Below are positions 24,267 to 25,792 of a DNA stretch of 64,000 nucleotides, piece by piece (position 1 is the stretch's first letter; every line of letters starts with the position of its first letter). The DNA comes from Escherichia coli 042. GTDB taxonomy: Bacteria > Pseudomonadota > Gammaproteobacteria > Enterobacterales > Enterobacteriaceae. The stretch lies in NCBI RefSeq assembly GCF_000027125.1, contig NC_017626.1; one strand, written 5' to 3'. Both the position numbers and the translations under genes were made by a program. The notes beneath the pieces are model-generated. The model saw only the letters and a program-made list of their open reading frames with translations, made no database searches and was not told the DNA's origin.

Positions 24267-24728
24267 TCACCCGTGCCTTAGAGTTTCATAATTCATAACT
24301 GCTATAGTGATCTCCAGCTTAGTCGTTTCAAGTATTTCTTCACATAAGACCAGATCATGAATGATGTTTTTGAGTAGCTCCTTATCGATTGCTCCATCAG
24401 CCACCCAAACTGCGATGTTTTCCATTTCTCGCACAAAAAGTTGTACACAATGGCCAAAACCATTTATCTCAAGAAAGTATGTTGAAAGGGCGATGCTTGA
24501 TCTTTTATTTCCGTCACTAAAAGCATGGAATTTATTGATTGCAAAGAACAAGTGACTTAGTTTGTCTACAAACCCGGGGTAATACCAGTCGTTTTGGATA
24601 TGCTCAAGGGCACTCTCCAGTACCCCTTGGTCTCTGATTCCGTGTAAGCCGCCTGTTTTCTCAATGATCCAATCATGAACCCGAATGGCGTGTTCAATAT
24701 CAAAATAATTGAATTGTATATCGTCCAT
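24267..24728 (-). CDS. Fic/Doc-family protein (Doc-type toxin-like)
   Basis: 153 aa; motif HAFSDGNKRSS fits the Fic/Doc core Hx[FA]xDGNKR. Confidence 0.7.
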   Translation of the reverse strand: MDDIQFNYFDIEHAIRVHDWIIEKTGGLHGIRDQGVLESALEHIQNDWYYPGFVDKLSHLFFAINKFHAFSDGNKRSSIALSTYFLEINGFGHCVQLFVREMENIAVWVADGAIDKELLKNIIHDLVLCEEILETTKLEITIAVMNYETLRHG

Positions 24729-24736
24729 TGATCCCC

Positions 24737-25792
24737 CTATCGGTCTTTTAGTCTTTTGAACACTTCTAGGGTTTCTGGATCGTTCAGGCGTTCTTCAAGT
24801 GATTTACTTTTCTCACCCAAGAAACGTTCAAAGTCTCCTTCAGGTACAGCTCGCACATATGCTTCCAGTTTTTCATGTAAAGCATCGCGAAAACATAAGT
24901 CTCGGCTTGCCATTTTCGTTCGCACATCAACCAACATTGGTTCATATAGAGGATGTTTTTCCATAGTGGTTAATATGGCTTCAGCTTCTTTGTATGTGAG
25001 TTTCCTACCTATCTGGAGTGACTTTTGTTTTATCTCATGAGCCAAACCAGCTTCGAAACTGGCAATCAGCGTCAACACTTCAGAGTACATAGTGTCACGT
25101 ATTTTATCGTGCTGATGGAGTTTTAATACGCTTCTGTACTCATTGGCATTTTCATGGAAAATGCTTTGATAAATCGCATTTGTTAGTTTTCCAAACTTCC
25201 AGCCATTGGCATCAACATATTCATTGAGGGCGTCAGTAAATTGCTTTCTGTAACTCTCTTCTTTAAAGGAGGCAACTAAGTAATCTTCGTCACGTTGGTT
25301 GATGAATTTCGTGTGACCACCGGCTCGTTCAGCAAGCGTATCAATCACTATATCTAACAGTCTAGTGCGAATTATTTTGGCTTGCTCGCTTTCGACAAGT
25401 AGCATTGCAAGGTTTAATACGGCTCTAAACTTAAACACTCCCAGCACTGAAGTCTTGGTACCCTCATTAATGAGGGCACCATCAGCTACTTCCTTGAATT
25501 CTTTTAGATTTTTACCTCTCAAAATGATGTAGCCATTGTTCTTCAGCTCATCCAAGTTGTTAGCTATATACCTCTCAATGGTCGCATCACTTACATCAAA
25601 CAGATCTACCAGTTGATTCTTGGTAAAAACTCTTTCTCCATCGAACTCAACTCCGCCAAGAGCAAGGTGTTTTTCAGCATGTCGGAGTGCATAAGAGTTA
25701 TTCAAAATATTTTGTCTGTCATGAGCAGAGGTTGTTAAATCTTTAGCCATGTTAACACCTATAAAGACGCAATAACGTGTATACGATAACAT
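24737..25792 (-). CDS. RhuM-family virulence-associated protein
   Basis: 351 aa; immediately upstream of and co-directional with the Doc-like gene (8-nt gap); family assignment from recalled RhuM similarity. Confidence 0.55.
   Translation of the reverse strand: MLSYTRYCVFIGVNMAKDLTTSAHDRQNILNNSYALRHAEKHLALGGVEFDGERVFTKNQLVDLFDVSDATIERYIANNLDELKNNGYIILRGKNLKEFKEVADGALINEGTKTSVLGVFKFRAVLNLAMLLVESEQAKIIRTRLLDIVIDTLAERAGGHTKFINQRDEDYLVASFKEESYRKQFTDALNEYVDANGWKFGKLTNAIYQSIFHENANEYRSVLKLHQHDKIRDTMYSEVLTLIASFEAGLAHEIKQKSLQIGRKLTYKEAEAILTTMEKHPLYEPMLVDVRTKMASRDLCFRDALHEKLEAYVRAVPEGDFERFLGEKSKSLEERLNDPETLEVFKRLKDR

Follow-up and report, generated by a model that had tools for sequence, protein, structure and literature searches.

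The 64,000-nt stretch of Escherichia coli 042 DNA analyzed here (contig NC_017626.1 of assembly GCF_000027125.1; hereafter the window) contains two adjacent minus-strand genes that probably form a bicistronic toxin-antitoxin (TA) or abortive-infection-type module. The downstream gene encodes a toxin of the Doc family. The gene immediately upstream encodes a 337-aa protein that would serve as a sensor-like, DNA-binding antitoxin with a C-terminal helix resembling that of the small antitoxin Phd (Phd-C-like). An earlier note on this DNA had proposed a non-canonical toxin pairing or abortive-infection pair with a DNA-binding partner of the RhuM family. The pairing is borne out by the obligate linkage of the two genes, their defense context, and the place of the partner in the antitoxin slot, whereas the RhuM assignment is not. 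The features of the pair, in window coordinates, are:

24267–24728, minus strand: Doc-type Fic-fold toxin gene, 153 aa, stop codon within the interval
24501–24527, minus strand: codons of the catalytic motif H68-A-F-S-D-G-N-K-R76, read from the sequence
24729–24736, minus strand: intergenic spacer GGGGATCA at the operon junction, 8 nt, with a Shine-Dalgarno-like GGGGA
24737–25750, minus strand: partner gene in the antitoxin position, product DdrC-like and putatively DNA-binding, 337 aa, stop codon within the interval (PADLOC PDC-M59A)
25397–25663, minus strand: predicted winged-helix/DHD-like DNA-binding domain, partner residues 30–118, with a helix-turn-helix (HTH) at about residues 40–64
24935–25396, minus strand: helical bundle domain of the AlphaFold2 (AF2) model, partner residues 119–272; the DdrC match spans both domains
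25306–25332, minus strand: near-invariant flexible loop E-R-x-G-G-x-T-K-[YF]-I-N-Q-R-D, partner residues 140–148
24740–24934, minus strand: C-terminal tail, partner residues 273–337, the most conserved segment and the proposed Doc-neutralizing element
24740–24766, minus strand: Phd-C-like motif E-V-F-K-R-L-K-D-R-COOH, partner residues 329–337, with R333 and L334 invariant
25751–25792, minus strand: 5' extension of the maximal partner ORF, 14 codons, probably untranslated

The Doc toxin and its upstream partner

Both open reading frames (ORFs; 24267–24728, and 24737–25792 at the maximal extent of 351 aa) and the 8-nt gap between them are read directly from the sequence, as the earlier note had described. 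The 351-aa length given there holds for the maximal ORF but not for the product, which almost certainly starts at M15 (ATG at 25750) and has 337 aa. This start is preferred because a Shine-Dalgarno sequence (AGGTG at 25756–25760) lies 5 nt ahead of the ATG and because 337 aa is the length of both the annotated protein and its homologs. In the NCBI Prokaryotic Genome Annotation Pipeline, the partner is a 'hypothetical protein' (WP_001590894.1, 337 aa) and the 153-aa product is a 'type II toxin-antitoxin system death-on-curing family toxin'. Chance does not account for either gene, given their matches to the PADLOC hidden Markov models (HMMs) PDC-M59A (partner, E 5.7e-105) and PDC-M59B (Doc, E 8.2e-30). 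Scans for promoters, terminators, and repeats around the pair found none above shuffled expectation.

By sequence, the 153-aa protein is a genuine Doc. It exceeds the cut-offs of both the Pfam Fic family (PF02661; E 1.5e-13, 51.9 bits against a cut-off of 24) and TIGR01550 (DOC_P1; 44.6 bits against 38.65), and it aligns with Doc of phage P1 (PDB 3k33) at E 2e-6. In this alignment, HAFSDGNKR at residues 68–76, which the earlier note had recognized as an HxxxDGNKR core, falls on HIFNDANKR of P1 Doc. Among 58 Docs from paired loci, H68, F70, D72, G73, N74, K75, and R76 are invariant, and the motif H-x-F-x-[DN]-G-N-K-R is intact in all 84 Docs that adjoin partner homologs. Because these residues are invariant in paired Docs, the possibility that the catalytic motif is degenerate can be set aside. 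Relative to P1 Doc, the C-terminus is extended by about 25 aa, a conserved feature that on viral contigs accompanies the 337-aa partner. By analogy with the family, this Doc would phosphorylate EF-Tu (Thr382), arrest translation, and be toxic when unopposed (Castro-Roa 2013, as cited in PMC10440598; PMC9207808).

A divergent pair on a metagenome contig (L093:2747–4366; homolog P0186) has a 392-aa partner with large insertions. Its Doc-like protein has lost the catalytic motif (NQYQEIIEDSKGLS instead of HxFxDGNKR) and has kept the remaining fold sequence. This pair is either a pseudo-toxin or a decaying module.

A RhuM-family virulence protein combined with a Fic-type AMPylating effector, acting on a host or eukaryotic target, would agree with NCBI and COG naming that lumps 'RhuM/Fic/DOC' and with natural fusions of RhuM-N to a Doc domain (PADLOC PDC-S23). 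Moreover, a genuine RhuM gene (PF13310, 1.3e-114) lies directly after the pair in Vibrio cholerae islands, where it is a separate third gene. The partner itself is not RhuM. It has no Pfam match to PF13310 (Virulence_RhuM) at E ≤ 10, and PF13310 matches none of 55 diverse members of the partner family at E ≤ 0.1. Comparison with true RhuM by BLASTP and hhalign gave only an insignificant HTH-like stretch of 25 residues, and hhalign against a 16-sequence RhuM profile gave a probability of 1%. These four comparisons rule out RhuM membership. The toxin motif also differs from that of AMPylases. It is of the Doc kinase type (HxFx[D/N][A/G]NKR) and not HxFx[D/E]GNGRxxR: a Lys stands where AMPylases have Gly, and the second Arg is missing. 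An AMPylating effector, which the earlier note had considered, is thus unlikely given this motif and a family that is common in free-living marine bacteria, cyanobacteria, and other environmental genomes. No secretion signal was seen, although none was searched for. The virulence-effector explanation as a whole is very improbable and essentially excluded.

Other Fic-fold or DNA-binding proteins are known from defense contexts, among them SoFic and RhuM (PDC-S05). The motif of SoFic, an AMPylase, differs from that of Doc, and SoFic was not matched in the PADLOC scan. RhuM did not match the partner in the comparisons above. PDC-S23 joins a DNA-binding RhuM-N module to a Doc domain in one protein, whereas here the two genes are separate and the partner is not RhuM.

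Linkage, the antitoxin slot, and the C-terminal tail

At 90% identity, the partner family falls into more than 6000 clusters, nearly all with a length of 337 aa. Scanning one genome for each species gave 214 relatives, and 80 loci were fetched. These loci span about ten phyla, and their partners are 46–83% identical over the full length. The taxa include Gamma-, Beta-, and Alphaproteobacteria, Cyanobacteria, Bacteroidota, Firmicutes, Campylobacterota, and Nitrospirota (Nitrospirales), and the pair also occurs in Verrucomicrobiota, Ignavibacteria, KSB1, and others. A Doc of 143–161 aa lies −8 to +16 nt past the partner stop in 77 of the 80 loci (one of the 77, at +78 nt, is an artifact of the ORF start). 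In the other three, less than 320 nt of contig remains. The linkage of partner and Doc is therefore obligate wherever the contig allows. Furthermore, pairwise identity in one protein correlates with that in the other (r = 0.85). Within the species, only 20 of 5426 complete E. coli genomes carry the pair, in two allelic forms that share 85% identity, and the window region is 100% identical in several complete E. coli genomes. At L091/L092, a 366-aa homolog (P0141) stands without Doc, in convergent orientation to genes for an MvaI/BcnI-type restriction enzyme and for an N4/N6 methyltransferase. The tail of this homolog is divergent, without the terminal …RLKDR.

No small antitoxin ORF was found between or beside the two genes, in agreement with the earlier note, and homologous loci leave no room for one because the flanking genes abut or overlap the pair. 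A standard Phd ORF does not explain the locus either; yet the C-terminus of the partner bears a Phd-C-like motif. The slot upstream of Doc was surveyed on viral contigs scanned with a Doc alignment, which gave 79 usable Doc loci. The 337-aa protein occupies this position in 45 of them, and their Docs are mostly 142–163 aa and carry the extension. The other 34 loci have a different upstream protein, mostly of 37–92 aa and overlapping Doc by 4 nt, and Docs of mostly 123–131 aa. Three of these 34 upstream proteins are larger (207–287 aa), including Panacea and coiled-coil cases. Six of the ten upstream proteins scanned against Pfam are antitoxins, namely Phd/YefM (L158, L170, and L171), RelB (L165), MazE (L161), and Panacea (L156), and the remaining four had no antitoxin match. 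Each Doc thus has a single upstream partner, and the 337-aa protein and known antitoxin families are mutually exclusive.

The partner ends in …DPETLEVFKRLKDR-COOH. Its tail has a mean column identity of 0.80, compared with 0.64–0.72 elsewhere in the protein, and contains the invariant residues R277, M280–D284, H292, Y298, F310, G312, S315, R333, and L334. In the AF2 monomer model, residues 273–337 have a predicted local distance difference test score (pLDDT) of 41–59, compared with 75–93 for the remainder. A tail that is conserved yet modeled at low pLDDT fits a segment that folds on target binding.

Similar termini occur on proteins upstream of the closest Docs that lack the 337-aa partner. 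These are a 69-aa protein (…DPDILNVFIRLRDK), proteins of 37 aa (…VKSVFKRLKDK), 42 aa (…REVFIRLKDK), and 59 aa (…VKGVFDRLKDK), a 287-aa coiled-coil protein (…ILDVYIRLRDK), an AbrB-like protein of 76 aa (…EALFKRLADR), and a Phd-type protein (…IEVFKELANR), all in the antitoxin position. The strict terminal pattern is present in 34 of 79 antitoxin-position ORFs at the viral loci and in none of 3662 other ORFs; at the genome loci, the counts are 66 of 87 partners and none of 5213 other ORFs. Partners outside the strict pattern have the motif followed by 1–5 extra residues. On viral loci L123–L127 and L117, Docs of 157–224 aa that bear other C-terminal extensions have as their partner a conserved 69–70-aa protein, which has no Pfam family and ends in …NVFIRLRDK. 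This protein may be a minimal version of the tail of the 337-aa partner.

The motif can be placed beside that of Phd itself. P1 Phd ends in …STNKELVNR, as confirmed against PDB 3k33, and the Doc-binding peptide of Salmonella Phd (residues 52–73) is MDDEFAAIMAVHGNELRELADK (PMC9207808). In the latter, both L67 and L70 act as hot spots, and inhibition of Doc in vitro and in vivo requires two 'gatekeepers', one of which is L70 (PMC9207808). Partner F331-K-R-L334-K-D-R337-COOH runs co-linear with L67-R-E-L70-A-D-K73-COOH of Salmonella Phd, part of helix alpha2, which was mapped by experiment as the Doc-inhibiting helix. L334, which falls on the gatekeeper L70, does not vary in the partner family.

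The pair shares with phd-doc of phage P1 and Salmonella the toxin family, the catalytic motif, and the position of the antidote gene, here a putative one, immediately upstream in one operon. Phd and the partner both end in phi-x-x-L-x-[DN]-[KR]-COOH, and in Phd this helix binds and inhibits Doc. The two systems differ in that Phd has 73 aa, whereas the partner has 337 aa with a DdrC-like body and no Pfam match to the Phd/YefM domain (PF02604), the mark of the small antitoxin (~70–90 aa) in canonical phd-doc. In addition, the Doc described here has the extra extension of about 25 aa, and the pair is often embedded in restriction-modification (RM) operons without a promoter of its own. A parallel in architecture is PanA(Phd-C)-Doc of Corynebacterium doosanense, which likewise combines a large folded antitoxin domain with a terminal Phd-C element (PMC10440598). 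In that work (NetFlax), a Phd-C element on a Panacea domain, or even on SUMO, was sufficient to neutralize Doc, and the globular Panacea domain was proposed to be sensory (PMC10440598). The partner differs from PanA in having no PF13274 match and in its winged-helix and helical-bundle body; a real Panacea-Doc pair is found at L156. Taken together, a neutralizing role of the partner is reasonably supported.

The partner body, its defense context, and alternative explanations

The NCBI name for the partner family is 'DNA-binding protein', and the family has no Pfam entry. A sub-threshold Pfam match to ORF6N covers partner residues 34–86. Weak ORF6N matches occur in 10 of 55 family members, and several members match HTH families there. 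Structurally, the partner has a single significant match, DdrC, which covers both domains at 11–14% identity, and the modeled two-domain arrangement (winged-helix/DHD-like N-terminal domain and helical-bundle C-terminal domain) corresponds to a DdrC-like fold. DdrC of Deinococcus radiodurans works as a dimer that senses both single- and double-strand breaks in DNA (PMC11347143). The two proteins also differ. The partner is about 100 aa longer with a conserved tail, DdrC has no toxin partner, and no relation was detected at the sequence level, as a sequence search of the partner against the PDB did not find DdrC.

Residues 168–244 of the partner weakly match the DinD-like PADLOC model PDC-S13 (6.5e-6). 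Direct similarity to the neighboring DinD was considered and rejected, since neither BLASTP nor hhalign detected any and the weak PDC-S13 link is the only connection. A Fic inhibitory-helix motif, [ST]xxxE[GN], was likewise rejected. The candidate in the partner (S196…E200-N201) has a Ser position that is not conserved in the family. As for the flexible loop at residues 140–148, the version in the partner reads E141-R-A-G-G-H-T147-K, and the EF-Tu site phosphorylated by Doc is R-E-G-G-R-T382-V. This resemblance is a weak lead that the loop may be a pseudo-substrate or regulatory phosphosite. The idea is weakened by the absence of Thr147 in a Streptococcus homolog (L073) and in the distant, Doc-paired P0145.

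The genomic context of the homologs points to defense. Type I RM genes (hsdM, hsdS, or hsdR) are on the same strand in at least 33 of 82 loci, and in eight loci the pair is truly nested in the order hsdM-hsdS-[pair]-hsdR. The immediate upstream neighbor is HsdS in 19 of 68 cases, and other upstream neighbors include DNA methyltransferases, AAA_21 ATPases, McrBC-like proteins, BrxC, and GmrSD. Downstream of Doc, HsdR is often found, and integrases, HipA, or a DRT UG5 reverse transcriptase are found sometimes. In marine metagenome loci L006–L009:7513–10716, the pair is directly followed by a 1067-aa protein with no precomputed Pfam domain, which PADLOC identifies as a DRT UG5-nitrilase reverse transcriptase; type I RM, the pair, and DRT lie in this order in one island. 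A 639-aa metagenomic protein (P0125) has a C5 DNA cytosine methyltransferase in its N-terminal ~300 aa, fused to a full-length partner with the canonical tail, which suggests that the partner and DNA modification are functionally connected. Four satellite phages of Streptococcus (Javan319, 742, 758, and 313) also carry the pair, beside the integrase and with the partner annotated as 'CiaB protein'.

In the window, the two neighboring genes lie on one strand and each matches its HMM of the PADLOC system PDC-M59, the partner PDC-M59A and Doc PDC-M59B. PDC-M59 is one of 145 predicted defense candidates (Payne et al. 2024 preprint). It was found through its embedding in type I RM loci, a context shared by the homologs described here, and was accepted as a three-family cassette with 46 instances (third family FAM_00939). 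The corresponding two-family cassette, with 414 instances, is labeled 'Reject' (Payne et al. 2024). The window has two genes and no RM system.

A system with a comparable layout is PrrC/EcoprrI, in which a translation-targeting suicide effector is nested in a type I RM operon and the anticodon nuclease is silenced by the RM enzyme. By analogy, nesting of the present pair in type I RM operons suggests a second-line, guard-type logic. The effector here, however, is an unrelated kinase that always comes with a partner of its own, and the pair is also found away from RM genes, the window being one example.

A probable mechanism can be outlined from these features. Doc kinase would phosphorylate EF-Tu and halt translation. 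The partner would stand in for Phd, with its C-terminal …VFKRLKDR-COOH helix binding the active-site groove of Doc and keeping the kinase off, and the DdrC-like winged-helix and helical-bundle body would be the sensor or regulator that decides the release of Doc. The body is too large and too conserved for a mere carrier, and most likely has such a role. The partner often lacks its own promoter region, as its start overlaps hsdS or hsdR, which speaks against the body being simply an operator-binding domain; it may instead be a sensor. Phage attack would then lead to abortive infection or growth arrest, which is the most likely role given that the module is mobile cargo of defense islands, RM operons, and satellites. 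A more specific version of this proposal is that the DdrC-like body senses broken or foreign DNA (for example, the ends of injected phage DNA, nicks, or breaks) and frees the C-terminal helix from Doc. Such nicks and breaks might stem from failed restriction or from phage nucleases acting on the chromosome. Sensing of DNA lesions would explain the frequent nesting between hsdS and hsdR, but this particular trigger must be regarded as unlikely.

The main rival, itself somewhat unlikely, is a plain addiction or stabilization TA module, which would secure the mobile elements and RM operons that carry it by post-segregational killing with no phage sensing and in which the partner body would be an autoregulatory DNA-binding domain. 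Doc was discovered as a plasmid-addiction toxin, and phd-doc stabilizes plasmid P1. An antitoxin-type C-terminus and the presence of the pair on horizontally spreading islands, satellites, and RM cassettes are consistent with addiction. However, in many loci the partner start overlaps or abuts hsdS or hsdR, leaving no promoter or operator of its own. In addition, a body of about 270 residues with 46–90% identity across phyla exceeds what operator binding needs, as proteins of 37–70 aa with the same C-terminal motif fill the slot beside the closest Doc relatives. The family is also almost absent from plasmids, with matches in 3 of 72,556 records, one of them over most of the length.

Several observations count against a defense module in which the partner neutralizes Doc. 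The link to Phd-C rests on about 7–9 residues and their position, a short terminal motif, because profile searches failed. The tail profile found neither Phd nor any other PDB sequence, and the Phd-type antitoxin from L158 likewise failed to retrieve P1 Phd. With the 69-aa protein, hhalign aligned only 12 columns of the tail (E 0.03). Nor is a complex confidently predicted. An AF2 model of partner, linker, and Doc as a single chain, based on a 27-row paired alignment, had a predicted template modeling score (pTM) of 0.40 and left residues 285–316 at pLDDT below 50, and only the last helix rose, modestly, from about 55 to about 68. The similarity to DdrC depends on a medium-confidence model (pLDDT 76, pTM 0.44) and the 11–14% identity given above. 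A solo partner homolog with a canonical-looking tail and no Doc is present on a 1.8-kb contig. RM-embedded loci have no dedicated promoter or operator region, and classical autoregulation should not be assumed. The 'Reject' label would apply to this pair if the family codes FAM_01085 and FAM_00079 stand for the partner and Doc, an identification not given in the supplement searched. Nor does the window have a third co-oriented gene, as about 410 nt of non-coding DNA follow downstream and then PerC on the other strand. Finally, literature searches found no experimental study of the pair and, in the papers searched, no mention of PDC-M59.

Some of these points could instead indicate that the partner is an independent DNA-binding regulator of the island, an anti-repressor-like or DNA-repair protein, with Doc under the control of an antisense or small RNA or of a host factor, or only weakly active. 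The lack of a confident complex in the AF2 fusion, the DNA-related role suggested by the DdrC-like fold and the weak ORF6N/HTH matches, and the rare solo homologs next to type II RM genes all agree with this explanation. It is nevertheless improbable. Linkage is 100% at all loci with enough contig left, in about ten phyla and at a translationally coupled spacing; the partner and known antitoxins exclude each other in the slot; and the C-terminus carries the antitoxin-type motif. Moreover, the viral-contig survey found no Doc of this clade without an upstream partner. A Doc TA or abortive-infection-type module with the 337-aa protein as antitoxin is thus the preferred explanation.

The yicC-dinD island and its cargo

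An integrative island carries the pair at its right end and has the following features:

6051–24200: integrative element, between yicC (about 5083–5946) and dinD (26267–27103)
13124–15883: TOPRIM-DUF927 primase
16646–21304: DUF2824 and P22-like DNA-ejection/injection proteins
22706–22891: AlpA
23567–23854: PerC

Other island genes encode a tyrosine integrase, an HTH regulator, an AntA/AntB antirepressor, an ash-family protein, and DUF4222. Capsid, tail, and terminase genes are absent from 6051–24200, and the island resembles a satellite- or PICI-like element, or else a remnant, that oddly retains ejection proteins. The yicC gene is a known insertion site of MGIVchHai6-type islands (PMC7449626). 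A search for attachment (att) repeats of the island gave a 12-nt match only, which is not informative. The GC content of the pair is 40%, compared with 48% for the island, and in sister islands the slot between PerC and dinD is empty or holds an unrelated gene of 254 aa. The pair is stand-alone cargo in a variable slot of the island, with no RM system in the window.

The segment from the ejection genes to PerC (21300–23500) is also variable. It contains AlpA and small ORFs here, and an ImmA/IrrE metallopeptidase with two hypothetical genes in other E. coli strains (L095/L097). On the far side of the pair, DinD (26267–27103, Bro-N domain) matches PDC-S13 at 1e-120 and a type I specificity-subunit fusion model at 3.5e-113; the latter match indicates that DinD-like proteins are also RM-embedded. 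A terminator-like match at 26212–26239 is the LexA box of dinD, CTGTATATAAACACAG.

For the window, these findings indicate that the cargo of the yicC-dinD island is a probable defense or competition module and not a virulence gene. For the Doc family, a textbook toxin family whose known antidotes are small, they point to an antidote slot that is held in thousands of genomes from about ten phyla by a highly conserved 337-aa protein, and they give a mechanistic hypothesis to a PADLOC candidate that has so far been only a name. If the proposed antitoxin role is correct, the partner would be a natural example of an emerging rule, in which a short neutralizing peptide is bolted onto different sensor domains, and it would link DNA sensing to the shut-off of translation within RM operons and phage satellites. 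If DNA lesions are indeed the trigger, their sensing would be wired directly to a translation-stopping kinase, which would represent a new trigger logic for TA-based immunity.

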